A stretch of DNA of 64,000 bases, from the NCBI RefSeq assembly GCF_026210795.1, contig NC_089431.1, forward strand, positions 2,108,001 to 2,172,000, read 5' to 3'. Positions 11,144 through 57,500 of this stretch are shown here, piece after piece (the first letter of the stretch is position 1; each line of letters opens with the position of its first letter). The notes beneath the pieces were generated by a model that was given only the letters and a program-made list of their open reading frames with translations, was not told the DNA's origin and did no database searches. The position numbers and the translations under genes were made by a program. Source of the DNA: Rhizophagus irregularis. Lineage: Eukaryota.

Positions 11144-12200
11144 CTTCAGAGCGTATTTTGAGATCTTTAGCCAAAGTAAATCAACTTCTTATATTAATTG
11201 TAAGTTGTTCGGCAGGTTAAAATCTACTTGGATATTAATTTTCACGAAGGTACAGTTAATACTTGATGAGTTATTTACAATTTTCACAACAGTACTCATT
11301 CACGACTTTTATTTTTTTTATTTTGTCACTTCAGAGCGTATTTTGAGATCTTTAGCCAAAGTAAATCAACTTCTTATATTAATTGTAAGTTGTTCGGCAG
11401 GTTAAAATCTACTTGGATATTAATTTTCACGAAGGTACAGTTATTACTTGATGAGTTATTTACAATTTTCACAACAGTACTCATTCCCGACTTTTATTTT
11501 TTTCATTTTGTCACTTCAGAGCGTATTTTGAGCACTTTATCCAAAGTAAACCAACTTCTTATATTAATTGAAAGTTGTTTAGCATGTCAAAATCTACTTG
11601 AATATTAATTTTCACGAAGGTACAGTTAATACTTGATGAGTTATTCACGATTTTCACAATGGTACTCATTTACGAATTTTATTTTTTTCCGTTTTGTCAC
11701 TTCAGAGCGTATTTTGAGCACTTTAGTCAAAGTAAATCGACTTCTTTTATTAATTGAAAGTTGTTCAGCAGGTCAAAATCTACTTGGATATTAATTTTTA
11801 CGAAGGTACAGTTAATACTTGATGAGTTATTCACGATTTTCACAACGGTACTCATTTACGAATTTTATTTTTTCCATTTTGTTACTTCAGAGCGTATTTT
11901 AAGCACTTTAGCCAAAGTAAATCGACTTCTTTTATTAATTGAAAGTTGTTCAGCAGGTCAAAATCTACTTGGATATTAATTTTTACGAAGGTACAGTTAA
12001 TACTTGATGAGTTATTCACGATTTTCACAACGGTACTCATTTACGAATTTTATTTTTTCCATTTTGTTACTTCAGAGCGTATTTTAAGCACTTTAGCCAA
12101 AGTAAATCGACTTCTTTTATTAATTAAAAATTGTTCAGCAGCTTAGAATCTACTTGAATATTTATTTTAATGAAGGCACAGTTAATATTTGTGGAGTTAT
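11144..12200. repeat. 185-bp tandem satellite, about 6 copies
   Basis: CTTCAGAGCGTATTTT recurs at ~11144, 11329, 11514, 11700, 11885 and 12070. Confidence 0.95.
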
Positions 12201-12231
12201 TAATTTTTTATAATTGTGCGTATTACATTAA

Positions 12232-14596: not shown

Positions 14597-15672
14597 CTGC
14601 TTAATTCTAATTTAACTAATTTAGTATTAAGGTTTTAATTTAAAAATTAAGCAGTATCAAGGAAAATTCTTGCGAATTTTTCTTAATACTGCTTAATTCT
14701 AATTTGACTAATTTAGTATTAAGGCTTTAATTTAAAAATTAAGCAGTATCAAGGAAAATTCTTGCGAATTTTTCTTAATACTGCTTAATTCTAATTTAAC
14801 TAATTTAGTATTAAGGCTTTAATTTAAAAATTAAGCAGTATCAAGGAAAATTCTTGCGAATTTTTCTTAATACAGTCAACTCTCTTTATAGTCACACATT
14901 TGGGACTGTCCATATTTGGTGATTACAAAGAGATGTGACTATATAAAAAATTTCTTATATTTGTATATCATAATTCTGGCCAAAAATTAACATAATTTTA
15001 GCCAGAATTATACTTAAAACTTTATTGTATCGTAACTTCGCCAATATTAATCGTAGAGAGATGATCTTACCGCCATTCGATTCGTCTTGATGAGACGGTT
15101 CTAATGGTATAAAATACATCGAAATTCAATCACTAGATTAATTTCCAAAATTAAAAAAATATTAATGGTTTTTGTGTAATAACTCTGCCAATATTGATCC
15201 TAGAAAGACGATCTTACTACTATTCGATTCGTCTTGATGAGACGCATCTAATGGTATAAGATACATCGAAATCCAATCACTAGATCAATTTCCAAAATTA
15301 AAAAATATTAAATGGTTTTTAAGTAATAACTCCGTCAATATTGATCACAGAGAGATGAACTTACTACCATTCGATTCGTCTCGATGAGGCGATTCCAACG
15401 AGCTATAAATCGTCCTTTTACAATCACTAGGTACTGAGAAATCTAGCAAAATGTTAAATGGCGCAGTAAACGTAAATCAAGAAATATTATAATGCCAATG
15501 TTTAACATTTTGTTGAATAACTCGTCAGCCAGTGATCGGAAAAGGATAAAATTAACTCTCTCCCGTTCTGCTCACTTGACAATATTTACGAAAAAATAAA
15601 AAATTTTTTCGAAGTTTTTTATTACTTTTTCTTTATATTTTCTTTATTTTAGATAACTGCGACACTTTACAA

Positions 15673-17691
15673 ATGGCTAAAGATAACAAAAAGAAAGATA
15701 ACAAGTCTAACAAAGATACTACTTCTAAACGTCCTGCCTCTAGCTCTCCAACTGGCAACGTTTCTGGTCAAGGTTCCTCTATGTCTGGTCCTTCGAACAC
15801 TCCACCTTCGACCACCTCTACTAATAAACGTACCAGAATCAGTGCCGACGACTCTGTCATGGATGTTGATAAACCTCTCACGCCTCCTGGCCCTGTTGAG
15901 ACAACTTCCGTTGAGACACCTTCTCAACCTGATACCTCCTCTCTTGACGCTTCTCAACACGCACCTGCTAATAACAACGATAAAGGCAAAGGCCCTGATA
16001 TTACTCCCGCAGTTTCCTTCCCAGAACGTGCTGCCTCCCGGACGCGTCCCAAGGCTGCAGTACAATCTCAACCTACACTTTTACGCCTGGCGCTCCTAAT
16101 GACGTCGAAGATTTTTGGACTCACTTCGCTTCGAACCGCGACACGTGCGACGCGGTTGATCGACAACTTTCCTTGTTCCCCTCTTATGGTAGTCGTGCCA
16201 CGTGTAGTGGATCCAACGATTTGAAAAGGATCATCGTTCACTTCCGAAAAAAGGAAGATCTTGTCAAAGCCGTAGCTTCCCCTATGGATTCTTTGTTTAA
16301 CTTGCATTTCCATGCATATGACCCCCAGGCTATTAAAGCAGATGAACACGCGCGTACCCTGGTGGTTACCGACATCCCCCTTTTTATAACTGACGCTCTT
16401 TTGCGTGGTACCTTTTCCCGTTATGGCAATATTGTTCGCTGCCATACCCGTTTATCTAAACTTTATCGTACTGCATACATTACCTTTGAATCTACTGGTG
16501 CTTTACAGAACCTCGACTCTACCTGGGGCGTCCTTTGTGGAGGACATTGTTTGCGTATCTGCCCCGCTACTTTCTCACCTGAACAACGCGCTGAAAGACG
16601 CGCTTACGTTGCCTTACTTGCCGGTCTCCCGCGTGGTACTATAGCGGTCGATCTTGCTGAAATTGCCGATGAAATTTCCGCTAAATCTATCAATGTTCCC
16701 TTCTCTACGCGAATTCTTACAATCCCAAACCTTACGCCTATTGCCATTTTGCCTCTGAAACGGCTATGGAAAATGCTAAATCTATTTCATGTGCCCTCAA
16801 GAAAGTTGGCCTTACCTGGCATTCTCTGGATGAAGTCACCTCTCTTTGTCATCGGTGTGGTCGCCCTAATTGTAACCCTGATCGATGTGGTTCTTCATCT
16901 AGACCTAATACCCTCTCGCCATTGGCGAATCTAATGATAAATTACGTGCTTTATATAACAAGCATCTACCTCCTTCTCATCCCGCTAAACGACATAACCG
17001 TTTTGCCCGCCCCTGATAACAATAATGATGGACGCGCCCGTACAATGCTTCTCGCCATCGTTCTAAATCCAGACCTAATAACCGACAACAATCTCGTTCT
17101 CGTTCTCAACATCGACCATGGAATCGTGACAATCTTAACAACAACAATAATAATCAACGTCGTCGTATTCCTGATGCAAATGAACTTGATCACTATGCTG
17201 ATGGCATGGATGTTACATATCCTGCTCCTCCTACTGTGCTTACTGATTGGAAATCTATTGGTGTTGCTCTTGAAAAAGTAGTTGAAGATTTAGCCCTCCT
17301 TACCACACAATTTGCTACCATGAACAGCCGCATCACCAAATTGGAATCTGCTATGGCTGCTCGTGCTCCTGTTCCAGGACCTTTTGTCGCAAAACCACCT
17401 TCCTACATCCCTTCCTCTATGCAAGGATGGGATGATACAGTGAATCGAAATGATAATAATATCCTCGTTGATGTTAATTCTCCTCCTTTGCAATCAACAA
17501 GTGGTTTTTCCCCAATTCCCCATTTTGCTCCCATTCCACCTTCTAACGTTGCCCCTTCCTCTCCTATTGATATGGAACAGCGACTCTCCTCTCTTTCTGA
17601 CACTGTTGCCTCTTTGGCTGGCTCGATTAAAGAAGGAATCCAACAAAATAACCTCATCCTAGCTCGGAAACAAGGCCAGGCTAATCAATAA
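15673..17691 (+). pseudogene. LINE ORF1 (RRM-like domains, CX2CX4CX4C knuckle, coiled coil), frameshifted
   Basis: Overlapping fragments 15673-16224, 16173-16934 (RTLVVTDIPLFI...FSRYGNI), 16766-17281 (CHRCGRPNCNPDRC) and 17206-17691. Homologous to ORF1 at 43721-45373. Confidence 0.85.
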
Positions 17692-17739
17692 TTGTTGTCC
17701 TTTTTCCCCTTCTTTATTACCGTTTATCAGTGTGTAATA

Positions 17740-20700
17740 ATGATGGACAACAAAAAACATAATTTTTCTCCTCATCCCTCTCCCCTTATTAAATTTGGTC
17801 AATTGAATGTTAATGGTTTATGTTCTCCAGTTCGACAACAACATTTACTTAATTTTTTTCTTCACTCTTCCTTTGGTGCTTTATCTGTTAATGATACGCG
17901 TCTTTTCCCTTCAAATGCTAAATTTATTTTCAAAAACGAACACTCCCAACATCACTTTAAGTCCTATTGGGCTTGTTCATCTTCTTCTCGCCTTCATGAT
18001 GGTGTTGGTATTTTGTTACGTAATCCTCTTCATAAGCATGTCCAAACAATTGATCCGTGGAAAGGTCGACTTCTTAAATTAAATTTGTTTTTTCATCAAA
18101 CCAAAATCTCTATTATTTCTATATATTACCCTCCTTCTGGTTCTATTCATCGTTCTATTTATAATGATCTTATTACTAAACTCCTTTCCTGGCTTGATTA
18201 TGCCAGAAATAACAATTATTTTGTAATTATTCTTGGCGACTTTAATATTGATGAAATCGCTCATTCCCATTATTCATCTAATCATTTTAAGCTCCTTCGC
18301 TTGCTTTCTTCTCGGTTTTTTACCGATCATCAAGCTTACTCCTCTACAAATGGTCCTGATCTCACCTTCTTTCATGATAATGGATCTTCTAGACTGGATT
18401 ATATTTGGTCTTCACCTGGTTTTCCTGCACCTGGTCTTTTTTCGCAAGTGGTTACTTGCCCGGATCTCCTTGATCGTCCTTTTACAGATCACAAAGTTCT
18501 TACAACTATCTTTGACTTCAGTTCTTGCTTGGCTGTTTTGGCTAAATCTCGTCTCAAACAGAAAAAAGAAATGCGTACTATTTTTTCTTACGTTTCCACT
18601 TCAGTTGAACAATGGAATAATTTTACCACTGAAGTAGATGATTCTTTTGGAGTTTATTTAGATAGACAATATCACCCTAATTCTGATTTCTCCTTTCTTT
18701 CTCTTGATCGTATGTGGCATGCATTGAAAGCTGCCATAATTAGTGCTGCAATTGAAACTCTACCCTTTCAAAAAGTCTCCAATACACACTGACATTCATA
18801 CTCTCCTGAATTGACTAAACTTATTGCTATTAACAAATTTTTAGATCGATTTTTACATCGCCTTACTACTCGTCATTCTAATCGGCCTACTCAGATTGCG
18901 CAAATGACTGCTGCTTTGCCCTCCCATCTTGGAAATTTAGCATCCTTACTTCCTGATTATTCAGTTCCTACCTATTCTACATTCCCTGTATCTGTATTTA
19001 AATCATTTTTACGATCACAGAAGAATTTAGTTTCTGCTTTTTTATCTACTAAATTTGCCCAACACCTTACGGATTCAGTGGAATATTATACTGCACTACG
19101 TGACGAACACTTTTCGAACTCGCTTGGCACCTTTATAGATTCTGCCTTATCAGTAGAAAAACGCTCAATTGTTCTTGATCGTGTCCTGGTTGTACTGGAC
19201 TCAACTCCTACTTTACTAACGGATCCTTCGGACATTAAACAAGCAGCTATTTCTCATTTTCAATCGATTGTTTCTCCTCCGTTGGTCCGCTATTCTTCCA
19301 TCACTTCATTTCCCGCCCGATGGCAACAAGCTTACACTCCTCTTACAAATGTGTCTGCTTCATTATATGATCCTGTTTTGGCGCCTATTTCCCTACAAGA
19401 ATGGTCTGCTGTGATTTCCTCCATGCCAAATAACAAAGCTTCCGGCCCTTCAAAAATTTCTTATGAGATGATTAAACACTTGTCCGGTGAAGCCTTGGAA
19501 TTTTCTCTTTTACTTGCCAATACTTGCCTTTCTCGTGGTGATATTTCTGCTGACTGGCGTGAAGCCGTGGTTTATCCTATTTCTAAACCTCATGACTTTG
19601 ATGCTCAACTTAAGAACACTCGACCTATTACCCTTCTGGAAACAGTTCGAAAATGTGTAGTTAAGGTCGTCACGAATCGTCTTTCCAACATCCTTGCTGA
19701 TAATAAAATTCTCCAAGGTGGTAATTTTGCTGGTTTACCTGGTAGTTCTACGGATGTCCCTATTAAGATGCTGGATGCGATTATTCATCAACATAAACAT
19801 GACTCTACTGATGATCAGGAACTATGGATCGTTTCTCAAGATATCTCTAAAGCTTTCGATTCTATGGACTTAAATATGCTTAAATTAGCTTTAGATAGAT
19901 TACATATTCCTGCACTTTTAGTGCGATTTATTTTGAATCTTTTTACCCGACGAAATAATAAGATTATTACCTGTCATGGCGATACAGCTGCTTATAGAGT
20001 ACGTGTTGGTATCGATCAAGGAGAAATCATTTCCCCTCTTCTTTGGGTTATTTATCTGGATCCCTTACTTACTATTTTGAATCAAGATGAGATCCTTTTA
20101 TTTTAAATTCTTCAGCTCTTCTAAATTATTCTCCACTAGAATTTGAACAACATTCCTTACCAATTTCACATTTAACGTTTATGGATGATTCTACACTTAT
20201 TGCCTCTTCCAAGTCCGGAATAGAAGATCGTCTTTCTATTACTGCTGAATTTTATACTTTAAATAATGTTCAAGCCAATTCAGCAAAATATGTTCTTCTT
20301 TCATCTTCTTCGCCTTCTTCAAAGATTATTTTTGATCTTTTACTTTCTTCTTTAGTTTCCGATACTTCTCTCTCCCTTTCTTCTTTATCTCTTAATACTT
20401 TTTTCCGTTTCTTAGGAGTTTGGTTTTCCTTGTCTGCCTCTTCCGCTTTTGTTTTGAAACAAGCGCGCTCCATGGTCAAAGATATGGCTGCTCTTCTGGG
20501 CCCGAAGAAATTATTAGCTCAACATGTGGCCTATCTTTATAATGCTGTCCTTCTTCCGCGATTGGAATTCCGTCTTCAAACTACCCTTTTCTCTGAAAGT
20601 ACTATTCAATCAATAGTTAAACCTATGTTTTCAGTACTTCGAAGAAAAGCTGGACTTGCTGCGACTACTCCGTTGGCTTTGTTATTTCTTAAACTTCCTT

Positions 20701-23121
20701 TTTCGATTCAGAATGCTTTTTATCGATTCCTTTCTTCCCATATCGCATCTTGGCAAAAAATTTTCATTCACCCTGACTTCAAAGATTTTGCCCTCTATGC
20801 TATCTCCTATCTTCAAGGATATTTGGGTGCTGAGAGTTGCCTGACTACTATTGACTTAGAACCGTGGTCACAAGTCGTTTCTTTACGGACGCATACTTTG
20901 TTTAATTCATTATTATTTTCTTCGCGATTGAATATCACGTGGTCCCTCTCTTTCCGACCTCCGAGGCAGGACTTGCAACCAGCTTCGCCACTCCGAACCG
21001 TCTTACCGCATTCGATTTTTCAGACTGCTTGGAAACTTTGGAAAAATTTGAATCTTTTTGTCCTTGCTCAATTGGTTTCCCCTTGTGGACGATATCTTAT
21101 GAATTGGCTTGACCTTCGTTACCTTGGTATCGTTGGCCGTAAAGGACGGATTCCCACTTGGTTCAATTTTATTAAAAATAATTTTCTTTTTTCTCCTTCT
21201 TCTTCTTTATTGTTGCCTTTATATTTTATTAATTCTTCTTTTACTTTATCTTCCCCTTGTTTATTAGATCATACTGTTAAAGATTATTCCTTTTATCCTC
21301 AATGGGCTATTAATTTTAATGTCGCTACCCAAACTTTATCTGTGGGCCGTGTATGTATCACCTACAAGAAACAAGATTCTGCTATCATGTCCCATTGGCT
21401 TCCTGTATCTTCTTCCGCTGATGAACGATCTTATAATCCTTGTCCTGGATGTTCCTTTAATATCCCCGCCTTATCCAAGAAATCCGCAATTAAGCAACGC
21501 TGTAATAGCGAGAAGTGTTTTTTTAATGTAATCTTATCAGAAACCGTAGGCTATCCTACCAGAAATGCCAAAGTCTTTGCGGCCTACCTTCCGATTATTT
21601 TATCTACTTCGTGGAGTTATGCTACTTCTCTGGCTCTTGTTCATTTGTCAAAACCGTCTTTATCTACTTCTTCCACTCTCTCTTCTTCCTTAAAGGATAT
21701 GCCTGACGATGTTGTTTTACCACTTTCCGTGCAATCTCTGTATACTGATGGTTCTTTTCATGTTGCTACGGACTCTTCACCTGCTTCCATGACCTCTGCT
21801 TGGCTTGCCCTTGATGATGATGGACTTATTCTTGAATCTTCATCTTTGCAACTTTTTTCATGTCTTCCTTCAGCTTTGCGTTCTGAAATCTATGCTGTTG
21901 TATTAGGACTAAACGCTCTTTCTCGTGGCACTTCAATCTCCATTCATACTGATTGTAGTCAGCTTATCTCACTATGGAAACGCTTTGTTGATGTTCCTTT
22001 TTCACCAAAGTTGCTTCGAGAACATAATCATCTCCTTTGGCTTTCTATTCGATATCTCATTATGGATCGTGACCTTAAGGTTGATTTGATTAAAGTCCCT
22101 GCTCATGGCGATGACATCTATAATATGCAAGCGGATTCATTGGCAAAAGACGCTCATTCGCCTTCCCCACCTAATATTTCACCTTGGCATTTTGTTATGC
22201 TCCGTGCTTGTTATCATTTAATTCTTTGCCTATTGACATGAATATTCGTCATTTCCTCCGCTCTATAGCTGACGCTCGTGCTCTTTTATCTTTCTGTTCA
22301 TTGGCACGGTTTACTGCTCTTGGTTCCCTTCACTTTTTGATTGGGCTGGTATATATTTTTGCCTTTCACAAATTAAAGGTTTTGCTTCGCATAAGAATGG
22401 TCGTCCTGAATTCTGGATCTTCTGTATCAAACTCCTTTTGGATATGTTGCCTACTTTAACTACTCTTCAACAACGCAAACCTTATTTATATTCTCCCGAT
22501 TGGCTTTGTCCACAATGCAACTCAGCTCCTGAAGATTTGAATCATCTTTGAACTTGTCCTTATATTCTTCCAGATTTAAATCCGTGTTTGACACATCGTT
22601 CTGAAATTATCAAATTCAGAGATTCCTGCTTATCTTCGTTCTCATCTCTGAAACCTCTGGATATTACCTTCCAAACTGGATTCTCTGCTCTAGATTGTTG
22701 GAACTATGATACTCCTTCTTTGTCCTGTCTCTGGCTTACTCGAGGATTGTTGCCTGCGCATTTAACAGGTTTTTTAAACCAACACTTTCCTCTCTCTGTC
22801 ATATACAAGATTATTTCTCCTCTCCTTAATGACTTCCAAGTCGAATTGTATGGTGAAATTTGGCTGTGTCGGAATGTTCTTTTCCATGCTTGGGAAGAGT
22901 CGCAGGGTATCTCGGCTGCTTCTAAATTACGTGGCCCATCTATAAATTCTTCTCCTATTGTTCCTTCTCCACATACAAATAACTCTTCTTTGGCGACAGT
23001 TTCTCAGGATTCCTGGATTTCTTGGATATCCTCTTCTATAATTCAGGGTGGATCATGGATCTCACACTTGGATTTTCTGCGCCGCTTAACAGTTCAACCT
23101 CTTAGGATTTCTTTCTGGTAA
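17740..23121 (+). pseudogene. LINE ORF2 (APE endonuclease, RT, RNase H, Zn motif), disrupted
   Basis: NVNG, GDFN, RLDYIW, TDH; QDISKAFD, GIDQGEIISP, FMDD; YTDGS, RSE, HTD, KVPAH; CPQC. Stops at 18790-18792 and ~22549; frameshifts near 20090, 22180 and 22330. Confidence 0.92.
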
Positions 23122-23391
23122 CGGACTGGATTTTTGGATGTTGGATAGTTGACTCACACTGGCCTTCGGGTAAAGTTGGGGTATGCGATTCTGTAATAGT
23201 CTAGTTTTTCTTTGCTTTAATTTTATTTTAGTTTAGATTTCTTTACTTGTATGAATCGTGAAGCTACTCTTTTATTTTTATTAGTTTATTTTCTTATTTT
23301 TGTAATTTGTTCGTTTGAATTTTCGATGTTAAAATATAAATAAAAATAAAGTCATAAGACTGTTTGCAAAAGGAAAAGGATAAAATTACCA

Positions 23392-24377
23392 GGGTTGGTC
23401 ACCCTATCTCGGTGGTTAGTCACTGAGACCCTCATTAAGCCTGAGTATGGTGAGATCGCAGGTTCGATTCCTATAACCACGGAAATAAAAAGAATTTTAC
23501 TGCGGACGCTACAACCAATAGCGTGAAGGTACAGGGATTAGTGTAGTTGGACTGCATTATGGTGAATTAGTGTGTACGGTTAGGCTGCACATTTCAACTA
23601 AGGGCGGTCATGGTGTCCTTCTAACGTTCCCTATGAGGCCATTGGCATGTGCGCAGTCCTGTCCTTGAGGTCACTACTATACCTTGGGAGGGACTTCCTG
23701 TCCGGGTGGTCACTCTACGATACCGCTTGGGGCCGTAATAGCTAGATGGTCGTCCTAGATGGTAAAGCTGAGGGTGCAATGTCTTAGTGGTAGTTAGACC
23801 TTCTGTTAGGTCTTAGACCAACCAAGGTGTTCGTGCGAGAACAGGTAACGCATGGCTATGGGGTTCGGATTCCCTACTTCTTGGGTCCTGGTTGGTGATC
23901 CCTGGTGGTTGATACCCACCATAAGGGGTGATCCTGGACAGATGCCTGCTACTTCCTGTCCGAGTGGTCACTACAAAAGTATACCACTTGGGGTAAACAA
24001 CTGTACTATCGGTGCTAGGTAATCGCGGGCTGTAGTGGCCTTTGAGTGAGGCTTAGTACCAAATAAAATGGTGGTATGGAAGGGTACTAGATGGTTGATG
24101 TTACCTGTCGAAAGTCCTCCATGAAAGTAGATGCTCTCTAAAGGTCGTTAAATAAATTGAGTATCAGTATCATGCAATGGGTATAGGATGAGTAGGCGGC
24201 GTGTACTGCTTCGATCAGCCTAAATGGCCCGATGGGGGATGTCTTCTATAGTGGTGCTGTTACCTGAGGAATTAAGTACTCGGTTTAATGGTTGCCCATT
24301 GAAGATGATAGGACACAGACCCTGAACGATTAGTCTCATAAGAGGCAATGGGTGGTCTGGCCGTAAACACTTGCAAA
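23392..24377 (+). mobile_element. 986-bp non-coding SINE-like retroposon, highly structured
   Basis: GC-richer than its surroundings and ORF-free; 20-bp TSD GGAAAAGGATAAAATTACCA at 23372-23391 and 24378-24397; Pol III B-box-like GGTTCGATTCC at 23461-23471; many hairpins; ends TTGCAAA like the adjacent LINE. Confidence 0.75.
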
Positions 24378-27348
24378 GGAAAAGGATAAAATTACCACCA
24401 TTCGATTCGTCTCAGTGAGACGATTCTAACAAGCTATGATACATCTTTGTACGATTATTAGATGCCAAGTTATTTAATATATTCTTTATATAACTGTGAT
24501 TATAAACAGTTCTTTTTAATATAAGATTTTTGAGGATAGGTATGATAGTGACTATAGATAGATTGTGACTATATAGGATAGATTTTAATAATAAAGTGTT
24601 TTGAACATTCAACTGGTGTGACTATATAGTAGAATGTGACTATAACGGGAGTGACTATAGAAGGAGTTGACTGTACTGCTTATTGTGCTTAATTCTAATT
24701 TAACTAATTTAGTATTAAGGCTTTAATTTAAAAATTAAGCAGTATCAAGGAAAATTCTTGCGAATTTTTCTTAATACTGCTTATATCTGCCAATTCGTGA
24801 AATTAGCCAAACATAAAGATTTGCACATTTTAACAAGAATTATGTTTCACAAGCTTAAATTGTATGTGTTACATAATCAGATGATCTAAATCTATCAAAA
24901 AATAAAAAAAAATTTTTTAACGTTTATTCAAAAATAACAATGGCAACTACTTTCTTTTTCAATCACTTTTCAATCACTTTTCAATCAGATTTTTGTTAGG
25001 TGACTTAGAAAAGTTTATAGGCATATATAGCAGGTTTTTTTCAATCAGTAAGTAAGAAAACAAATATTAATAATTTTTATTAATTAGAAAAATCTTTTTT
25101 CATTTATTTTTAACCTTATTCCCTTCTTTTTTTTAGTAAAAATATATACAAAATAAAAATGTGAGTTATGATTTAGAGTTTTTGAGATGGTTTTTTTTGT
25201 TTTTTACTATACTCTACTTGTTAATTACTTTTTTAACTTGATTTTATTAATTTATTCAATTTAAAACAGAAATGGCAAATAAAAACTTGTTAAGTAAAGT
25301 AAAAAGAGCCCAATAATACCTGTAAAGATCATCTTTAGGTAAGAATTATAATTTTAAAAATTTTTGTGTCAGAGTTTTATTCAATTAACAAAATCGTTAA
25401 TATCTCGGCGTACATGTATGCTAAACACATATATTTATATTCATATGAAAGCCCAGAATCTACTCTACCTGAACGAAAAAAGATTATTCAAATCGAATTA
25501 CTAGATGTGAAGATATTAACGATCAAAGTCAAAGGTTAAAAATAAATATATTGAACGTAATTATTCAGCAACTTGTGATCCAATTCATGTGATATTTGGT
25601 TTATGGATAGCTCTTGATTACCTCTTTCTAATGAATATAAATTCATTCGTCTAGCATACATACACGTTAAGTTATTCAATATTTTGTCATGACAATTATA
25701 TTTAAATTTTTTAATTTTAATGATATTATTAAAAAAATCAAAAAATAATATAATCAAATCAATTTTATTTATATCAGCGGTGTGAATCTATCATTTTCAT
25801 GTAAATTGTATTAGCATTTTCTTAATAAAGTTAGTTTTTTGAATATAAAAACTTAATTCCATAAATCAGTCCATATGTTAATTCTAATTTAACTAATTTA
25901 GTAGTATTAAGGCTTTAATTTAAAAATTAAGCAGTATCAAGGAAAATTCTTGCAAATTTTTCTTAATACTGCTTAATTCTAATTTAACTAATTTAATATT
26001 AAAGCTTTAATTTAAAAATTAAGCAGTATCAAAGAAAATTCTCACAAAATTTTCTTAATTCTAATTTAGTTAATTTAGTATTAAGGCTTTAATTTAAAAA
26101 TTAAGCAGTATTAAGAAAAATTTTTACAAATTTTCTTATTAAAAAAAAGAACTTTTAAATTACTAATTAAACTTTAAAAACAATCTGTATGATTTAAATT
26201 TTAAAAAAATACTTCTGCTTTTTAATTTTCGCATTTCTACATTTAACCAATTAAAATTCAGCTGATCGCCGATCACATGCATTAATAACACGTTATTGTT
26301 TATTTTTTGTTTATTTTTTCAAAAATATTCTTTTCTCTTCTTTTTTTTAGAAAAAAAAGACAATAAAAATGAATACCAAAATTATTTTAACATATAATAA
26401 TAAAAATTAAATAAAAAACTTATTTTGATAATATATAATATATATATTTGTACCAAACTACTAATTATACAAAAAGTGATATGCTCGTATATCAATTAAC
26501 AATTACTTTCACTAATATCTCTCTGGAATTGTAATGGTGAATTTTAACAATATTAATTAAACAACTATATGTACACCGTTTTATGTTTTTATTTTTATAT
26601 TAATATTATATGTTAACATATATTAATTATATTTTTTTTTACTTTTATGTATTTTATTTAATTTTTTTAATATATTACTAACATTACTACTATCGTTTTA
26701 TTACTTTTTTATATCTAACTAATATATTAATAATATTACTAACTTTTTATTATTTCTTTTTTATATTTAAAATAATGATAATATTACTAATTAAATTTCT
26801 TTTTTTTTGTTTATATTTTGCTAATATTATTTTTTTTACAAATAGTATATTATTTTATACTAGTTTTTTATTTATATTATTTATAAAAAAATATTTGTAT
26901 ATTTAATATTATTTAATAAAAATTTTATTGATTATAAATGCATTTTAAATTCTGTTTGCAAATATAAAATATACAATTTAATTGAATAATATATACTATT
27001 TATCAGTACAAAATATGCAGTTTAAACTGGAAAAAAGTACTGTTTATCAGTATAAAATATACGGTTTATCCTGGAAAAGTATACTGTTCGCAATATAAAA
27101 TATAAAACAATATACTGTTTATTGGTATAAAACATACGGTTTTTCTACTGTTTACAAGTATAAAACATACGGGTGAAACTGGAAAAATATACTGTATGCA
27201 AACCGTATATATAATACGGTGTGCAGAATACCGAATATATACAGTATGTGAAAATACTGTAATTATATGGTAATAATACTATAAATATACTGTTCGCAAA
27301 ATACGAAAATACAGTATACTAACCGTATATATATTTTTTATAGGGATA

Positions 27349-29083
27349 AAACTTCAAGCCCGGAAAAATGTCCCATTCAACACATTGGTAATAGCTAAAT
27401 TCCTTGACATTTCAATGGCGATAGACCCGATTGATAGATCAACTTGGAGTATATCAGGAGGGAAAGAGCCGATATTAAAGTTCTTTAAACAATATCAGCT
27501 TACGAAGTATATATATAGTATTAACCAAAGCTCACATTACCCAATATTTTATATTGATCAATTATTTATTAGGGGAACATATCTTATGACATGGAAACAA
27601 TATCGTAGTTTAGCACTACTCCCGGTACAAGGAAGGACAGCTAGATGGTACTGTGATGTGGCCCATTTGTGCACATCAAGGACAGATAATTTAACAGTAA
27701 GCAATGATCTGGAGATTACGAAAGTTAACCATTGGGCCTTCTTATTAGATATTATACTGGATGCACGACGCAAACAAGTCATTTTTGTTAGAGAGCCTTT
27801 GGCTAATTCAGATGCATGGTTAATTGGCAAAGTCAACAAAATACATCATCATGAACAGGGGATTTCAGTGAACTATCGTCCAGGATACAATGATAATGGA
27901 ATAATTGGATGGCAGGACACCGGACGAGTTATACTGGCTCATTGCTGTAAGAGAGCAATTTTAGATAGAGTCTCTAATTCACATGGTTGGAGTTTTCCTA
28001 GTGAATGGTTATCTTCAACTCATCATCCTGACATTTTGTTACCCGGAGATAGATCACCAACATCAACGCCAAGTCCCATAATTAGCCTACCACTGGTTCA
28101 GGACATATGGATTCACAGATGGATAGATGATGATGACTTGAAATCAAAACTTACGGATATTAGAAATATATTAGAAGAGAGAACATCAGTAGAATATTAC
28201 ACAGATGGTTCGCTCAGGACAAGTATCCCTACATCAAGGGATAAACAGGATCCCAATTTAGTGTACACAAAAATGGGTGCAGCGTTCTGTGTCAATGATG
28301 AACCTGCCTTATCTGCCCAAGCAAATTTATCATTATGGCCCTCTTCTACACGTGCAGAACTAGTGGCTATTTTTCTGGCATTACTCATAGGTCCTATGAA
28401 TGCAAAAATTAAGATATATACAGACAGTCAAAGTGCCATCTATATGATAAATAATAGACATAATAAATCGGGTAGAAAATTACTGAAACAGTCTAATTCT
28501 TTAATTTTACTTTCTTTTACAGGAAAAAAAGATGGATCTAGTGTTAGTGAAAGTTAAGGGACACAGTGAAGATGTTATGAATGAAATGGTAGATAAATTA
28601 GCTAAAAACACAAGTAATGATAGTGGTTACTTTAACAACAGATTTAACTATAGCAATAGGAAAAACAGATCCCCATTGAATACAACTTAAGGAAATTTAT
28701 CAAAACTCTAATGAATACTAAAGTGGCAGCAGAATGGTCAATGCTAAAATCAAATGGGAACTTAATTCATAGATATAAAGGGTTTAATTGTATTTCAGTT
28801 AAAAAACATTGGCACTTAATATTTATTGTTAAACTATTTGCTAAACTTCTTCCTATAGGTACTATTCTTCTACAGCGAAAACCAAATCTATACAAAGAGT
28901 TTGTCTGTCCAAGGTGCTAACAAAGAAGAAAACAGACATCATTTCATTGAATGTGAGGCCAATAAGGACTTATGGCCTATAATCAAAAGCAGAATGCAAA
29001 ATGATATGATTTCCATAATTCAAAAATAGAGTAATACAACAGAGGATACACCTAAGATTATAAATAAGAAATTAAACCAGATA
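27349..29083 (+). pseudogene. Old LINE ORF2, linker and RNase H part
   Basis: ORF 27385-28557 (YYTDGS, SSTRAEL, IYTDSQ), frameshifted KVKGHS, and ORF 28711-28920 ending CPRC. Confidence 0.85.
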
Positions 29084-29360
29084 CACTGGTCAAAAACTAG
29101 GCAAACGTGGCATAGTAGCCTTTATCTTTATTAAATTTATTCGAACTTTACAATTTACAAAAAAAAATAAAAAGAAAATATAAAAATAAAACTAACTAAA
29201 AACAAAGCTATATAGTTTCCTAAGAAAAAATAAAGTAAAAAAAATTAATCTAAAAAAAAGAAAAATCGCATTACACTAAATTTCCCCAGATCTTCCCCCT
29301 TGATATATTCCAACCAAAGTAGAAGCAACTATGCTAACAAAATAACGAATAGCGCGCCCA

Positions 29361-32300
29361 CTATAGAAATCGACACTCCATCCTGCAAAAGCTGTTATTA
29401 AGTAGCACCGTTAGACGACCCATAAAACCCGAAAAGTGATTAAACCAAGGCAAACCATATTTCATCGAGTTCTTCAACCAATCGGTTCCGGAGTCACGTG
29501 AATCGTGTAGGGTCGGAGGTGGTAAAGATGAGTAAGGTATGTACGTTGACAATGGCAAATTAGAAGGCTTCAGAGTAGTTTTCAACTTATAAGTAATATT
29601 CATCGCGTTTTCCCATCTACTTTTCTCATAAGAACGCGGATTCCAAATTCGTTTTCTGAATTTTTGGACAAAATTATTATGAATAGCAGCGATAACCTTA
29701 ATCGCAGAGATTCTTGGAATAGACAAATCGACTAAGATGTCAATAAAAAGTGTAGGTAAACAACCACGGACAAGGGCGTAAGAGGACCAATTTGTAGAAG
29801 AAAAGGACCAGCATGAAAGAGAAGTGAGTTTAGCAATAAAGGGAGTAGGATCAATATCAGCCAATTTTCCAGCTTCTTGAATTTTAGAAATCAAATGATT
29901 TTGATAAGATTGGAGAATTTGTTGCATAGGTAGACGACGTTTTTTGCACATAAAAAGGTGCATCAGGTCTTCCATGCGATCGATACAAGAACGGCAAGTT
30001 AATTCGTCCATGTATAAGTCTGGTCGAGTCCGCTTAAGCTTTTCCAATGTGGGTAAGTCGTCCAAGAAAAGTTTGAATTTAAAGGTTAAGTGTCTTGAAG
30101 CATGCTCAAGAGTAAAAGATGCATCATGAGAAGGCTTAAAATTCAAGGTAAACCAAGTAAGTTCCCAGTCGACAATATATTCTATATTAGATAATAATAA
30201 AGAAATAAAGTGAAATCGCGTTAAATTTAGCAAATCACGCATTAGCTGCGTTTGATAATACTGTTTAAGAAGGTGTCGTGGATTAGATTCACAAACGGCG
30301 TCATTGTCGTAAGTCAAGACGAAATCATGGGCAGAGGCAAGGTCCATTCCAGAAATCAAAATACTGGATGATGCGGTATGGGCAGTATTGGCCAGGGAGT
30401 CAGCAAAATCGTTCAAATAATTGCCAGAATGAGCTTTAACTTTAACAGGGAGAACTGTCAAATTCTTGGTAAGGATAGTTCGTTCAATAATGGCCCAAAG
30501 CTCAAAATTTGTTGTTTTGTAGTAAAGACGGCTATTTGAGTAGACATAGGAAGAGCAACTTCGAAGGCCATCAATGGCAGTTTGCGAGTCAGTATAAATA
30601 GTAACTTCTGAGTCGCGAGGAGAAATGGTTAAAACTGCGTAAATAGCGGCAGCTTCAGCACGAGAAGAAGAAGGATTATCTCGAATGATGCCATGTGCAT
30701 AAGTAGCAATGGAATTAGGAAAACCAGCATCAGGTACGATTTGCATCCAAGACCAGCCCATAGAAACATTAGGAGTGCCTAGATTAATAAGAGACCCATC
30801 AGTGAAAAAGATATAACGTGAGTCTGAAGACACAACCAACGGCGAATTTGCAAAAACAGCAGCAGCTGAGGATTCAATAGTGATAAGAGGAGCGGAAACT
30901 TCAACAATATCATCAGGAGGAGAGTCAAAATCAAAATCCAATCGACTGTAATAAAGACGGACACCATCTTCGATATCAGCCCAGGTAAAAGGAGAGGATA
31001 CTGCAGAAGTATTACGTCTAATGCGCTCATTGATAGTGGGCAGAATAAGCGAATGTTGTAGAGAAACCGTAGGCGTACAAAGGGTTAAATCAGCATTCCG
31101 TTTTTTGGAAGGAGGCAAAGAAGTATGAGCAGCACAACCAGGGCAAGGAGAGAGTCTAATGAGATCACCAGGCGAAGATTCACAATCAGAAGAGACCCAG
31201 TGAACAATAGAACAAGTACCATGACTTGCTTGAACTAAAAGTTGTTTGCCAAAGATGGGAGGACCGTAGTCGTCTAACGTGACAATCCAATTTTTCGTAG
31301 TGGTAGGAGAGGACAGGCAAGGAGTCAATTCATAAAATGAAGAGTCAATCGTAGGCGTAGTAATGAACTGGCTCAGCAAACGATTGTTAGTGTCAGGAAT
31401 GGTAGTAGCTTGCTGGATATCTTTATACCAATAAGGGATACAGCCAGGGCCACGTCGTCCAACCAAATTGTCATAGTAGGCTTTCCAAGAAATTAAATGG
31501 GTCCCTTGGGGAGTAACAAGCTGAGATAGATAAAACAAATGCCATTTTCGCAAAATAGGGAAATAGGCTTTAAACGCTTTAGGTGTCATGCATTCAAATA
31601 ACGGAACGCGTCCATCCATCAAAGTCAGGTTCGGAAGCTTCGAAAGTTGAGTATGAAGCAAACGAAAAGGAGTAGAGGATAAGAGAGCAATAGTGCATGC
31701 GATATAATCTTTCTTAAAAGAAAAAAGAGAAGACCATATAGACCAATCCTTAATTAAAAGGGGAGAAATAGGAATTAAAAAATTATATTGAATCAAACTC
31801 AATCTATAAATAAAAAGAGATTGAATAAAAGAAAAGGAAGAATTAGCCATTAAAAATAAATTAGTAATATGACATTGTCGTTGATGAGCAAATAAATTTA
31901 TCAAGCCCAAGGCTTGAGATAAAAATAAAATGGGATTTGGTAAAGAGCGAGAAAAATTTGCTTTGTGCTTTACAACAGATCGTATACTTCTCGTTATTAG
32001 GTGGCAGTCAGATTCAGACAAGTGAGTAACTTGCATCCGGTATTCAAGTTTCAGTATAAGGACAGCATTATGTAAATAAACAACTTGTTTGGATGAGAGC
32101 TTTGCAGGGCGGATGGTTGCAGCGAAGGAGCAGCATTCACGTTTGAGTTGTTTCTTGACAAAATCCCGGGAGCTTTTAATGTTAAACCAAACACCTAAAA
32201 AACGAAAAGAAGTTGTCATAGAAATTGGGGTAATGGTAATGGAAGGAACACTATTTAATGAGGATAAATCTAGATTAAAAGTAATAGGAGATAAAGTGGA

Positions 32301-34988: not shown

Positions 34989-35038
34989 TAAAACACAATG
35001 ATATAAACAGTCGGAGAGTTAAAATTTGAAGAAAGAAA

Positions 35039-37152
35039 TTAATTGGAAGAAGCTGAATCAGCTTGTTCCAGGGGAGCACCACCAAGGGAGCCAATGAATT
35101 GCTTGATATGACCAGTAAGTTGGTCCAATTTACTTTCAATAGCGACACGACTATTTTTGAGATCATTAATTTCTTCTTGTGTGGAGAAGATGGGAGTAAA
35201 AGGAGGAGCATTTGGAGAAAGGTGAGAAGAAGGAGGTGATGTGTCAGGAACAATAGTGAATGTAGGCGAAGGTCGCGTTAAAATACTTTTGGGAGGCAGC
35301 GAAGATTTAGCGGAAGACAGAATATTAAGAGGAACGTGAGTTACAGGGGCATCTTCTTGCATGAGGTCCGGTTCAGGTTCATTGGGTATAGGGAGTGGAT
35401 CAAGGCCAAGGTGTGATTCAATACGAGTCATCCGTTGGTCAGCAAGTTCAAGAGCGGAGATGCGTTTGTGAAAGTTAGCAACTTCACATTGTAATTCTCG
35501 TAAAAGGTTTAGAATGTTGTTAGCATCATCGCAGAGTTAGGAGTTTGTCGGGGTAAGGGACGTGCTGTAGAACGAGAGGAGGAAGAAAAGGAGACAGATC
35601 GTTCTTTACTATTATGGCGGGCACGTTGAGAAGTATTGGGAGGGGGTTTGTTATGATTACTATTATCATTATTAGTGCGGTCATGGGAAGCGTTATTGGC
35701 TCGTCCAGAATTGGAAGCAGATCGATCTTTAGATTTGGAGCGAGATCGAGAGCGAGAACGTGCATTGGCAATATTAGAATTGGAGCGAGGTTGATTAACA
35801 TTGAATCGTTCTTTAAGTTTTGCAACAGGGTCGCGAGTGCGGCTTCTACCTCTGGTTTGTTTGAGTGGGCAAAAATTAGGAGCACAACCTAGTTTGCCAC
35901 ATCTGTGACAAAGTTTATTAGTATTATCGGAAGAGGACCAGAAAAGCACTTTGCCTTGGAAGCTAACAGTCTGTTCCATAGCAGCATCCATGGTTTCTTG
36001 GGAGTTGAAGGTGACATAGGCCCATCTTTTGGGTTTGTAGGAATTTAAAGAAAGAGGAACATTGACAGCTTTTGCACCAAGATCGCGTGTAAGAGGAGCC
36101 AAGTTGATATCCTTAACATTGGGAGGAAGTTGAGTGAGGGTGGCAACGTATTGACGGCGCGCAGCTTTTTGATCCACAGTATAGAAACATGGAGTAATTC
36201 GGAGACAAGTGGAGAAACAGTAAACAGCCCATTGGTCGGTAAAACGAGCAATTGAATCGGCGTGATCATACACAATACGGGCTTGCTGGACTTTAGCATT
36301 AGGCCTGGAGAAGAGGCGACAAGAGGTAATATTACCAAATTTTTTGAAATAGGCCATGAGGTTGTCCTTTTTGATAAAGAAAGGGATATCGGTAACTTGG
36401 ATAGCCCGGAGATCTTCATTGGATCGGAGTTGGCGAGGGTCATGGGCATGAAAAATCAAGTCAGGGAACTCAGGATGAGAGGAACCAACGCACAGAGCGC
36501 GTGCTTCAGCGGTATGGAAGTGGATAACGAGGCGTTTAGCCTCACCAGAACCTGTCATACGAGCTTTTCCAGTGAATGACTCGTACGTTTCCAAGAAAAG
36601 GTTATTCACAGCCTCAATAAGGGCTTTATTGGTAGGGAATTTCTTGAGCGATTCAGGGGCAGCATTCGGCGCAGCCGCAGCCTGAAAATCATCTCTGGTT
36701 ATGGCAAAGGTCACCACTGGATCTGGGGTTTGATCGCCATCAGGAGCACCATTAGTATCCAAATTGGGCGACGTGTTAGGGGGTAGTTGCAAGTCTTTGT
36801 TTGAAGGTGCATGCATGGACGCGTCCACATTTCCAGAAGACGCGACGTGACTGGACGCAGTTGGCGCAGCAGATTTTTTCGGGGAGGAGGCCAAAGTATT
36901 TTCGCCAGAGATATTTTGTTGAGGAGAAAAGGAAGGTCCATCTACTCCAACGTCAGCCGTCTGGTCATCGGCAACGTAGTCTTCTTCCATAGAATTTTCG
37001 GTAATCGTACGATTACGTTTCTGCTGGATAGTGTTTTCACCATCGGAGCTTGAATTATCGGAGTTGTTATTATTTTTTCGTTCTTGATGGGAAGCTTTCC
37101 TACTGTTAGGGTTATGACTTCCACGGCCTCTCTTGGCATAGTTACCAGATAT
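35039..37152 (-). pseudogene. LINE ORF1 of copy A, disrupted
   Basis: The start codon reads ATA (37152-37150) where copy B has ATG. A 10-bp deletion near 35530 (copy B has AGGAGATAAT) shifts the frame. Confidence 0.88.
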
Positions 37153-37572
37153 AGTAGAGGGCTTTGAGTTGGGAATATATAAATATAAAATTTTTATTAG
37201 TAGCTTGTATTATTTTTTAAAAATAATAAAAAATTATTTTCGTCGGAATTTTCGTTTTTGAAAAATTCAGGAGAGAGTTACTGGTCAAAAACCACTACTA
37301 CTGGTCAAAAACTAGGCAAACGTGGCATAGTAGCCTTTATCTTTATTAAATTTATTCGAACTTTACAATTTACAAAAAAAATAAAAAGAAAATATAAAAA
37401 TAAAACTAACTAAAAACAAAGCTATATAGTCTCCTAAGAAAAAATAAAGTAAAAAATTAATCTAAAAAAAAGAAAAAACGCATTACACTAAATTTCCCCA
37501 GATCTTCCCACTTGATATATTCCAACCAAAGTAGAAGCAACTATGCTAACAAAATAACGAATAGCGCGCCCA

Positions 37573-43200: not shown

Positions 43201-43250
43201 TAAAACACAATGATATAAACAGTCGGGGAGTTAAAATTTGAAGAAAGAAA

Positions 43251-54301: not shown

Positions 54302-54597
54302 CAGTCAACTCCCTCTATAGTCACTCCCGTTATAGTCACATTCTACTATATAGTCACACCAGTTGAATGTTCAAAACACTTTATTATTAAAATCTATCCT
54401 ATATAGTCACAATCTATCTATAGTCACTATCACACCTATCCTCAAAAATCTTATATTAAAAAGAACCGTTTATAATCACAGTTATATAAAGAATATATTA
54501 AATAACTTGGCATCTAATAATCGTACAAAGATCTATCATAGCTTGTTAGAATCGTCTCACTGAGACGAATCGAATGGTGGTAGTTTTATCCTTTTCC
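54302..54597 (-). mobile_element. Arm of a second copy of the pogo-like MITE; the other arm is presumably beyond the window
   Basis: TA|CAGTCAACTCCCTCTATAGTCAC; reverse complement of 24378-24673 with 5 substitutions by manual count. Confidence 0.92.
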
Positions 54598-57500
54598 TGT
54601 GCAAACAGTCTTTTGACTTTATCTTTTATTTATATTTAACTTTTGAAAATACAATTGAACAATATTACAAAAATAAGAAAATAAACTAATAAAAAATAAA
54701 AGAGTAGCTTCACGACTCATACAAGTAAAGAAATCTAAACTAAAATAATATTAAAGCAAAGAAAAACTAAACTATTACAGAATCGCATACCCCAACTTTA
54801 CCCGAAGGCCAGTGTGAGTCAACTATCCAACTTCCAAAAATCCAGCCTGTTACCAGAAAGAAATCTTAAGAGGTTGAACTGTTAAGCGGCGCAGAAAATC
54901 CAAGTGCGAGATCATGATCCACCCCGAATTATAGAAGAGGATATCCAAGAAATCCAGGAATTCTGAGAAACTATCGCCAAAGAAGAGTTGTGAAATTGTG
55001 AAGAAATAGTAATAGATGAAGATTGCGAAGATGGGCCACGTAATTTGGAAGCAGCCGAGATACCTTGTGACTCTTCCCAAGCATGGAAAAAAACATTCCG
55101 ACATAACCAAATTTCATTAAGAAGAGGAGAAATAGTTTTGTAGATAACAGAGAGAGGAAAATACTGCTTCAGAAATGTCGTTAAATGCGCAGTTTACAAT
55201 CCTCTAGTGAGCCAAAGACAGGACGGAGAAGGGTATCGTAGTCCCAACAATCTAAAGTAGAGAATCCAGTTTGGAAAGAAATATCCAAGGACTTCAAGGA
55301 CAAGAACGAAGATAAGCAGGAGTCTCTAAATTTAATAACTTCAGAACGATGTGTTAAACATGGATTGAGATCAGGTAGGATATAAAGACAAGTCCAAAGA
55401 TGGTTCAAGTCTTCAGGAGCAGAGTTGCATTGCGGACAAAACCAATCCAGAGAATACAAATGAGGCATGCGTCGTTGTAAAGTAGTCAAAGTAGGCAACA
55501 TATCCAAGAGAAGTTTGATACAGAAGATCCAGAATTCAGGATGACCATTTTTATGCGAAGCGAAACCTTTAATCTGCAAAAGGCAAAAATGTATACCGGC
55601 CCAGTCAAAGAGTGCAGGGGAGCTAAGTGCAGTAAATCGCGCCATAGAGCAAAATGACAAAAGAGCACGAGCATCCACTATGGAGCGTAGGAAATGACGA
55701 ATATTCATGTCAATAGGCAAAGAATTAAAAGTCAATAGACATGGAGCATGACAGAACGTCAAAGGTGAAAAGGTAGGTTGTAAAGATGAATGAGCATCTT
55801 TGGCCAGAAAATCCGCTTGTATATTGTAGATGTCATCGCCATGAGCAGGGACTTTAATCAAATCGATTTTAAGATTACGATCCATAATAAGTTGTCGAAT
55901 AGAAAGCCAAAGAAGATGAAGCATCAACAAAGCGTGCCCATAGCGAGATTAGCTGACTACAATCAGAACGCAAGGCTGAAGGAAAGCATGAAGGGAGGCA
56001 CAAAGATGAAGAGTCAGGTATAAATTCATTATCATCAAGAGCAAGCCAAGCAGAAGTCATAGAAGGAGGAGAAGAGTCCTTAGCAGAAAAGAATGAACCA
56101 TCGGTATACATGGTATGCACAGAAAGAGGTAAAGCATCATCTTCTATCCTTGTTGTGGAAGGAGAGGAAAGGGCGGAGGAAGCAGGCTATGACAATTTTG
56201 TCAAATGTACAAGGGCCAAAGAAGTAGCATAACTCCATGAAGTAGATAAAGTTATAGGAAGATAAGCCGCAAATACTTTAGCATTTCTGGTAGGATAACC
56301 CACCGTTTCAGATAAACTGACATTGAAAAAACATTTTTCACTATTACAGCGCTGTTTAATTGCAGATTTCTTGGATAGAGCAGGTATATTAAAAGAACAA
56401 CCAGGGCAAGGATTATAGGATAGTTTATCGGCCAGAGTAAATACAGTAAGCCAATGAGACATGATAGCAGAATTTTGTTTCTTGTAGGTGATACACACAT
56501 GACTAACAGATAAAGTTTGAGTGGCAGAATTAAAATTAATAGCCCATTGAGGATAAAAATGATAATCTTTAACAGTATGATCTAATAAACAAGGTGAAGC
56601 TAAAGTAAAAGAAGAATTAATAAAATACAAAGGCAAAAATAAAGAAGAAAAAGAAGAAGAAAGAAAATTATTTTTAATAAAATTAAACCAAATAGGGATT
56701 TGTCCTTTACGGCCAACGATACCAAGGTACCGAAGATCAGACCAATTCATAAGATAACGTCCACAAGGGGAAGCCAGAATTTTTCCAGAGTTTTCAAGCA
56801 GTCTGAAAAATCGAATGTGGTAAAATGGATCGAAGCAGCAGAGCTGATTGTAGATCCCACCTCGTAGGTCAAAAAGGAAGGGACCACGTGATATTCAATC
56901 ATGAAGAGAATAGAATTGAATTAAATAAAATATGTGTTCGAAGAGAAATAACTTGAGACCATGGTTCCAAGCTAATAGTAGTCAGGCAGCTTTCAGCGCC
57001 CAAAAATCCTTGAAGATAAGAAATAGCATAAAAGGCAAAATTCCTGAAATCAGGATGTGTAAATATTTTTGCCAAGATGCAATGTGGGAAGAGAGGAACC
57101 GATAAAAGGCATTTTAAATCGAAAACAGAAGTTTAAGGAATAACAAAGCCAATGGAGTAGTAGTAGCAAGTCCAGCTTTTTTCCGTAAAACTGAGAACAT
57201 GGTATTTTCTGAAAAAAGAGTAGTTTGCAAACGAAATTCCAATCTCGGGAGAAGAACAGCATTATAGAGATAGGCCACATGTTGCGCCAATAACTTTTTT
57301 GGACCAAGAAGAGCAGCCATATCTTTAACCATAGAGCACGCTTGTTCAAGTACAAATTGGGAAGAAGCAGATAAAGAAAACCAAACACCTAAAAAGCGGA
57401 ATGAAGTATTCAAAGCTAAAGAAGAAAGAGAAAGAGAAGTTACTGTAACCAAAGAAGAGGTAAAAGATCAAAAATAATATTCGATGAAGGGGAGGAAGAT

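Follow-up and report, generated by a model that had tools for sequence, protein, structure and literature searches.

An insert and a LINE at one target site

The 64-kb window analysed here, i.e., the whole stretch of 64,000 nucleotides from Rhizophagus irregularis contig NC_089431.1, carries at 23392..24377 on the plus strand a full-length copy of a non-coding retroposon that resembles a short interspersed element (SINE). The insert is 986 bp long and has a GC content of 48.0%, compared with about 22–34% in the parts of the window outside long interspersed elements (LINEs) and ~28% in the genome. Its longest stop-to-stop frame spans 79 amino acids (aa), and Pfam recognised no family in the three longest frames tested (79, 63 and 63 aa). 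A sequence-only reading of the window had described an insert that is GC-richer than its surroundings and free of open reading frames (ORFs). This description holds, and every motif and hairpin quoted by that reading was found in its place. The element is non-coding and dispersed in many copies, two traits that it shares with SINEs. SINEs usually measure less than about 600–700 bp, a length that the element exceeds. That it is unusually long for a SINE had been remarked before and is borne out by the 986 bp between the two copies of its target-site duplication (TSD) and by RNA contigs of ~960–980 nt. Its ends (GGGTTGG... and ...TTGCAAA) are not inverted repeats and the TSD measures 20 bp, so that it lacks the marks of a miniature inverted-repeat transposable element (MITE) or another DNA transposon. 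Internally, the element contains on the plus strand a 22-nt direct repeat (23693..23714 and 23951-23972) whose two copies agree in 21 of 22 bases. No second copy of the element lies in the window.

Upstream of the element stands copy a of LINE family 1 (15555..23371, plus strand), a degenerate LINE with broken frames that encodes an ORF1 with an RRM domain, followed by APE endonuclease, reverse transcriptase (RT) and RNase H. The element is flanked by the 20-bp TSD GGAAAAGGATAAAATTACCA, of which the right copy (24378..24397, plus strand) is an exact match to the left copy (23372..23391, plus strand). The first 17 bp of the left copy double as the 3' TSD copy of the LINE, whose 17-bp TSD GGAAAAGGATAAAATTA stands at 15538..15554 (5' copy, plus strand) and at 23372-23388. 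The local order is TSD-LINE-TSD-element-TSD and, as had been claimed before, the element possesses its own 20-bp TSD that begins at the same GGAAAAGG as the TSD of the upstream LINE. TTGCAAA(A) directly precedes both TSD copies of the element, and LINE copy a ends ...GTCATAAGACTGTTTGCAAAA. We searched the 64 kb for GGAAAAGGATAAAATTACCA with up to three mismatches and obtained four matches, where 0.04 were expected. Apart from the two TSD copies these are located at 15538, on the 5' side of the LINE, and at 54578 on the minus strand, in an empty site. At this site without the element (54578..54617, minus strand), LINE family 1 copy b, which lies on the minus strand, ends at 54597 and runs off the window, borders with its 3' end on GGAAAAGGATAAAACTACCA; the same flank comes next, uninterrupted by a 1-kb insert. 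One nick site was used by all three insertion events in the window (LINE 1a, LINE 1b and the element), and each TSD starts at GGAAAAGG. Insertion of a LINE and a SINE-like element at the same nucleotide of a repeated target is what distinguishes a target-specific pair.

The target itself is a dispersed repeat. Its upstream part (15022..15537, plus strand) consists of 147-bp tandem subunits and a subsequent variant unit that ends ...CAGCCAGTGATC just before the nick site. The first ~32 nt of its downstream part (24398..24675, plus strand) belong to an abundant 147-bp repeat family. The junction ...CAGCCAGTGATC|GGAAAAGG... is uninterrupted in a contig of the public sequencing run X19. This contig reads ...TTGTTGAATAACTCGTCAGCCAGTGATC|GGAAAAGG..., matches 15508-15537 and contains neither the LINE nor the element; the empty target runs ...GTGATC|GGAAAAGG, without TTGCAAA. 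We infer that the first nick falls between GATC and GGAAAAGG. The distance to the second, downstream cut is 16 bp in the majority of the copies seen, 17 bp for the LINE and 20 bp for the window copy of the element. The sequence-only reading had labelled the target a MITE. We abandon this label for a dispersed repeat with 147-bp tandem subunits in which no pair of terminal inverted repeats could be shown.

Together with the 27 bases before it, the downstream part of the target repeat (24371-24675, 305 bp) is 98% identical to 54604-54300, whereas LINE copies a and b share 81–85% identity. Divergence is thus much greater between the LINE copies than between their flanks, which argues for independent insertions into young copies of one repeat and against a segmental duplication. 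In metagenome contigs, a 19-nt target-repeat pattern matched 28 loci. Here, a CCATTCGATTCG... unit of ~40–90 nt was widespread, often spaced by 147 bp and present in both orientations. The 147-bp spacing was found in soil and rhizosphere contigs (loci L001, L004, L009 and L027), and the unit was inverted in other loci, e.g., L012 and L021. Neither the element nor the LINE end was present in any of the 28 loci. A 21-nt pattern from the 3' part of the element had no match in the metagenome contigs, and two patterns searched in viral contigs had none either. As a side observation, the unit of the 147-bp tandem repeat (15022-15391) contains CCATTCGATTCGTCT.GATGAGACG.

Copies and transcripts of the element

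Other copies of the element are known from short Logan contigs of public sequencing runs, coded X1, X3 etc. Parts of the element were found in 20 of the 24 public runs listed (14 studies); eight contained at least half of its sampled words, with a best share of 0.69. We aligned contigs to 22900-24900, a stretch that also covers the LINE end and the flank. This resulted in 13372 contigs for X1, 10938 for X3, 3657 for X6 and 7115 for X8, numbers that are not to be read as copy numbers, since summed contig depth does not amount to one. Contig identities ranged from above 99% down to below 90%. Moreover, at single element positions the majority letter of the family was carried by 38–100 different contigs per run. 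With thousands of contig fragments in four DNA-like runs, the element is not a single-copy sequence but belongs to a multi-copy family, as the sequence-only reading had supposed.

The joints of other copies described in the following are among those listed. Full-length starts were seen in contigs that join ...GGATAAAA plus CT to the element at 23390-23393. The same ...GGATAAAA plus CT was also joined to the element at about 23472, 24011, 24023, 24057, 24169, 24175 and 24180, i.e., 5'-truncated copies start from at least seven points. Such a series of truncation points after one constant flank is the hallmark of target-primed reverse transcription acting on a fixed site, and 5' truncation with a constant 3' end is typical of LINE-dependent retroposons. 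Backward joints from 24391 to 23390-23392, with 29–38 letters on the shorter side, occurred in four contigs of X1 and one of X3. The left side of these joints must include the 3' end of the element, and they hence represent SINE-TSD-SINE tandems. A loose end in X3 before 23391 (7 reads) likewise ends in GGATAAAACT. Sequential insertions that sandwich a TSD were therefore seen both in the window, between LINE and element, and in these X1 and X3 joints.

Copies stand directly 5' of GGAAAAGGATAAAAC in the dispersed repeat, with a duplication of 16–20 bp. The TSD has the length expected for LINE-driven insertion: it is an exact 20-bp repeat in the window, and the 5' flank of other copies is the sequence that follows the 3' end. 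The full-length, 5'-truncated and tandem copies listed lie behind the same target sequence, in line with the target preference proposed from the window copy. The window copy is itself a somewhat mutated family member, with minority letters at 23455, 23472, 23475, 23558 and 23586. At 23603, 23975, 24061 and 24323-24327, most family members and all covering RNA contigs are 1–3 bases shorter than the window copy.

RNA contigs confined to the element were found in four studies (X15, X9, X16 and X19). The poly(A) metatranscriptome X15 contained one 960-nt contig (23412-24378) at a depth of 72, compared with 0–5 in the flank. In the complementary DNA (cDNA) run X9, coverage extended over 23392-24373 at a depth of 21–180, with 0 at the LINE end except for one bin and 0–54 in the flank. 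The rhizosphere metatranscriptome X16 and the sediment metatranscriptome X19 covered 23399-24280 and 23422-24248, respectively. Contigs from X15, X16 and X19 did not cover the LINE end and flank parts. Transcription, for which the sequence-only reading had suggested RNA sequencing as a check, is thus documented by discrete RNA contigs that cover only the element.

Both ends of this RNA could be located. In an X9 cDNA contig, GGTATCAACGCAGAGTACGGG stands directly before 23392, i.e., the template-switch oligo is joined to the first base of the element. According to the accessible part of its source, AAGCAGTGGTATCAACGCAGAGTACGGG is used as a label of RNA 5' ends in Smart-seq2 data (10.1101/2022.01.12.476004). 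The template-switch label at 23392 therefore places the RNA start at the first base of the element, give or take the G run. A start at this position is what a retroposon with an internal promoter needs. In X16, adapter sequence, presumably of Illumina type, is joined at 23399. The RNA is a discrete species of ~980 nt; it starts at the first base of the element, and its 3' end coincides with the last base or lies a few bases from it. RNA contigs include TTGCAAA and the empty target lacks it, which argues that TTGCAAA is the element's own end. The alternative that it forms part of a longer TSD, considered in the sequence-only reading, is unlikely, because the RNA reaches 24373 in X9 and 24378 in X15 and the empty target in X19 has no TTGCAAA. 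The insert is hence one full-length copy of a high-copy, transcribed, non-coding R. irregularis retroposon family.

Partner LINE, tRNA-like head and competing explanations

We propose, at a probability of roughly three in four, that the element is non-autonomous and that LINE family 1, which is target-specific, mobilised this retroposon in trans into the dispersed repeat. Its 3' terminus TTGCAAA (24371..24377, plus strand), which lies inside the RNA (to 24378 in X15), also ends LINE family 1, where TTGCAAAA stands at 23364-23371. Moreover, a small hairpin GTCTC-ATAA-GAGGC (24335..24348, plus strand) resembles AGTC-ATAA-GACT at the LINE family 1 3' end. This 3'-end echo of the LINE had been described before, and we found both of its parts.

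The window contains a second LINE family, represented by two full-length head-to-tail copies on the minus strand (29074-45515). They are 98.6% identical, and their ORF2 of 1875 aa is 99% identical to proteins named from Rhizophagus irregularis, which marks the host as an arbuscular mycorrhizal fungus. LINE family 2 ends GTTTGCC, and its 15-bp site TAGTTTTTGACCAGT stands before, between and after both copies, with an extra partial copy AGTAGTGGTTTTTGACCAGT at the middle junction. A long AT-rich palindrome of CATATCTGATACATATC-like words (45540-45790) lies directly 5' of the pair. Both LINE families begin (A)ACTCTCTCC. The element shares the nick site and the terminal TTGCAAA with LINE family 1, but neither the end nor the target of family 2. 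Both LINE families thus tend to restack at one site, each at a site of its own, and the element belongs with family 1. The sequence-only reading had named the element a non-autonomous partner mobilised by family 1 ORF2. The shared nick site and terminus fit this proposal, and mobilisation in trans is what we infer from them.

The element was likely copied by the endonuclease and RT of LINE family 1. The APE endonuclease would nick the bottom strand between GATC and GGAAAAGG, and the RT would start on the 3' end of the element, probably via the shared terminal UUGCAAA and the small AUAA-loop hairpin. A cut of the top strand 16–20 bp downstream would then regenerate the site for the next insertion.

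Several points weigh against this proposal. The 3'-end likeness to the LINE comprises seven terminal bases and a hairpin of 4–5 bp, and the AUAA-loop hairpins of both the element and LINE family 1 have energies no better than those of shuffles. The family 1 copies of the window are broken or incomplete, as copy a has disrupted frames and copy b runs off. Other copies were seen as short contigs, among them no second copy with both flanks, and their TSDs are deduced from the constant 5' flank; copies at other targets may exist beyond the joints listed. The RNA 5' end is defined by one 100-nt contig from one run labelled only 'RNA?'. Finally, with 986 nt and no significant match to transfer RNA (tRNA), 7SL or 5S, the element falls outside the strict definition of a SINE.

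A narrower version of the proposal is that of a true tRNA-derived SINE transcribed by RNA polymerase III (Pol III), in which a tRNA-Leu-like head would serve as promoter and read-through of a weak T4 at 23495 would yield the 1-kb RNA. We regard this version as possible, yet doubtful. ARAGORN at a 90% threshold (-ps90) called a degenerate tRNA-Leu(AAG)-like cloverleaf with a long variable arm at 23410..23483 (plus strand), i.e., below its default; 7 of 500 shuffles gave a call as well, and the whole window gave two. The cloverleaf starts 18 nt after the RNA 5' end, a plausible start distance for Pol III. It includes the B-box or T-loop motif GGTTCGATTCC (23461..23471, plus strand), which on either strand of the 64 kb is the sole match to GGTTCGANNCC, presumably the B-box consensus. 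The only T4 run of the element (23495..23498, plus strand) follows 12 nt behind the module and may be the remnant of a Pol III terminator. The 5' 110 nt of the element may accordingly be a decayed tRNA-Leu gene unit composed of an 18-nt leader, a cloverleaf with B box and T4.

Against these features stands that neither ARAGORN at default, which found no tRNA in the window, nor the Rfam tRNA model at its gathering score recognised a tRNA gene. At the 80% threshold ARAGORN made three calls in the element, a number reached by 2 of 200 shuffles, whereas 86 of 200 gave at least one. Results at default or -ps80 did not change after seven family majority letters had been swapped in. At 60% (-ps60) calls are meaningless, as all 50 of 50 shuffles also gave calls. 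Rfam at gathering scores found nothing across the whole window. Three Rfam sub-searches with E up to 10 returned chance-level matches only, with no significant tRNA, 7SL or 5S; at the first module, the best score within the tRNA clan was obtained for tRNA-Sec (12.6 bits, E 3.9) and was not significant. The A-box pattern had no match within the element. We had considered depletion of T runs as a sign of Pol III and rejected it, since the scarcity is explained by dinucleotide content (1 observed versus 1.56 expected with dinucleotides kept, P 0.52). Also, the RNA was assembled from the poly(A)-selected library X15, and 986 nt far exceed the usual Pol III products.

The two tRNA-like modules of the sequence-only reading therefore fared differently. 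In the first, the B box is present, while the cloverleaf remains below the thresholds of ARAGORN and Rfam and no A box accompanies it. The second (23821-23885) had no match to the tRNA clan and was called by ARAGORN only at a setting where 50 of 50 shuffles were called as well, and we do not retain it. Likewise, Pol III transcription as envisaged there is not supported, given the missing A-box match, the non-significant T-run depletion and the RNA in the poly(A) library. The sole other ARAGORN call at 90% in the window, a very AT-rich, tRNA-Leu(TAA)-like fold on the minus strand (24806-24894) ~430 bp behind the element, is probably due to chance.

It is unlikely that the copies are retropseudogenes of a functional host non-coding RNA gene, where a single master would produce the plentiful ~1-kb RNA, to be copied accidentally by the LINE. 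The discrete and abundant RNA in four studies would suit such a gene, and so would 48% GC in a genome of ~28% GC and a strand-asymmetric fold of the whole length (z −3.26 on the plus and −0.30 on the minus strand, 20 shuffles each). Contig fragments in the thousands, with numerous sequence variants, argue otherwise, as do tandem stacking, the fixed target and the 3' end common with the LINE, which may reflect adaptation to the machinery of the LINE. Moreover, Rfam recognised no family in it, and local structure is not above chance. Across nine windows of 200 nt within the element (plus strand), the z-scores averaged about −0.4 and lay between +1.46 and −2.39; a single one of the nine fell below −2. 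Nearly continuous hairpins, as described before, are therefore present as individual arms (TCTCGGTG/CACTGAGA, ACGCTA/TAGCGT, AGACCT/AGGTCT, TGTTC/GAACA and GGGGTTCGGATTCCC), while their local density is no more than expected by chance. Telomerase RNA was dropped by eye as an identity of the element, as there is no CCCTAA template within it.

We consider it very improbable that the element multiplied at the DNA level, inside the dispersed target repeat or by segmental duplication, without independent insertions. The flank is indeed very abundant, with a depth 5–10 times that of the element in X3, X6 and X8, and it is 98% identical between two places of the window. This explanation does not account for at least seven different 5' truncation points behind one constant flank, for a TSD length that varies between 16 bp (other copies), 17 bp (LINE) and 20 bp (window copy), for the existence of empty sites, for an RNA 5' end that coincides with the DNA boundary, or for LINE copies far more diverged than their flanks. 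That the element is the 3' part of an unrecognised longer LINE, with 23392 merely a frequent truncation point, deserves the least credit: 5'-truncated copies do exist and LINE 3' untranslated regions can be long, but several independent contigs start at 23390-23393, the template-switch label marks the RNA 5' end at 23392, the RNA contigs of four studies stop short of the upstream sequence, and similarity to the LINE families of the window is confined to the last bases.

Related systems and neighbouring repeats

A LINE and a SINE at one site are already known from animals. The closest precedent for mobilisation by LINE family 1 is the crocodilian pair of Tx1-Mar LINEs and SINEU elements, which, as far as the accessible part of its description goes, have common preferred sites in the Mariner-N4_AMi transposon (Kojima 2015, PMC4494074). 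Tandem insertions sandwich a 16-bp TSD there, and 5'-truncated copies were taken as proof of independent insertion (PMC4494074). To the extent of that description, the R. irregularis system agrees in that a non-autonomous retroposon and a LINE use one preferred site inside another dispersed repeat, that tandem insertions sandwich a TSD (16–20 bp here), that 5'-truncated copies at the same site indicate independent insertion, and that mobilisation in trans is deduced from the common target. It differs in its host, a fungus of the Glomeromycotina instead of a reptile, and in its target, which has 147-bp tandem subunits and is not a Mariner. In contrast to SINEU, which has a head derived from small nuclear RNA and measures under 300 bp, the element is ~1 kb long with a weak tRNA-like head. 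In pairs of the Tx1-Mar/SINEU type, the partner LINE belongs to the Tx1 clade; the partner LINE here is known by its domains (ORF1 with RRM; APE, RT, RNase H), RNase H among them.

In Xenopus, the LINE Tx1L inserts into the DNA transposon Tx1D. LINE family 1 resembles it as an APE-type LINE with sequence-specific insertion into another repeat; to our knowledge, the classic description of Tx1L and Tx1D includes no partner SINE. Long SINE-like elements of fungi include Eg-R1 of Blumeria (about 700 bp) and MgSINE of Magnaporthe. Like the element as proposed here, these are non-coding, LINE-dependent fungal retroposons, some of them unusually long and devoid of a clear Pol III promoter. The likeness is one of description, and we do not know of site-specific insertion for either of them.

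A curated R. irregularis repeat library lists newly found SINEs, and no other class had as many up-regulated families as the SINEs in arbuscules (158) and intraradical mycelium (148); about two-thirds of the repeats are unclassified, according to the accessible part of the report (Oliveira et al. 2024, PMC11075540). The 'SINE' entries come from the same species, and the family described here may already be listed among them; in its accessible part the paper gives no sequences, lengths, targets or partners (PMC11075540). Our literature search, including the accessible parts of PMC11075540, PMC11952901 and PMC13465315, returned no description of the family, of a target-specific LINE or of a LINE/SINE pair in Glomeromycota.

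With its RNA start and target site known and a LINE partner likely, this defined family would provide a mechanism behind R. irregularis SINE annotations. Its RNA could be used as a marker for R. irregularis in soil transcriptomes. It further adds a fungal APE-type LINE that hits one sequence and bears on how endonucleases of this kind recognise DNA. The existing understanding of how LINE/SINE pairs work is unchanged by the element. Tentatively, and with the odds rather against it, we put forward that no fungal case of a sequence-specific LINE with a ~1-kb RNA passenger of its own has been described before, and that LINE and passenger alike use one safe landing site in a satellite-like repeat, where they form head-to-tail arrays. 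The passenger RNA is sufficiently abundant for assembly from metatranscriptomes of rhizosphere and sediment and might thus belong to the 'SINE' families, the class with most up-regulated members in arbuscules. The LINE endonuclease would then read a long, defined DNA site.

Fold z-scores of −2.8 to −5.4, strongly negative on either strand, were obtained at 24592-24891, where an inverted-repeat element lies directly behind the end of the target repeat at 24675. Around 24690-24783, many joints in X8 and X9 go back. Four more blocks of tandem repeats are located at 525-1445, 4520-5744, 10957-12207 and 51853-52990, with units that are 72–89% identical.

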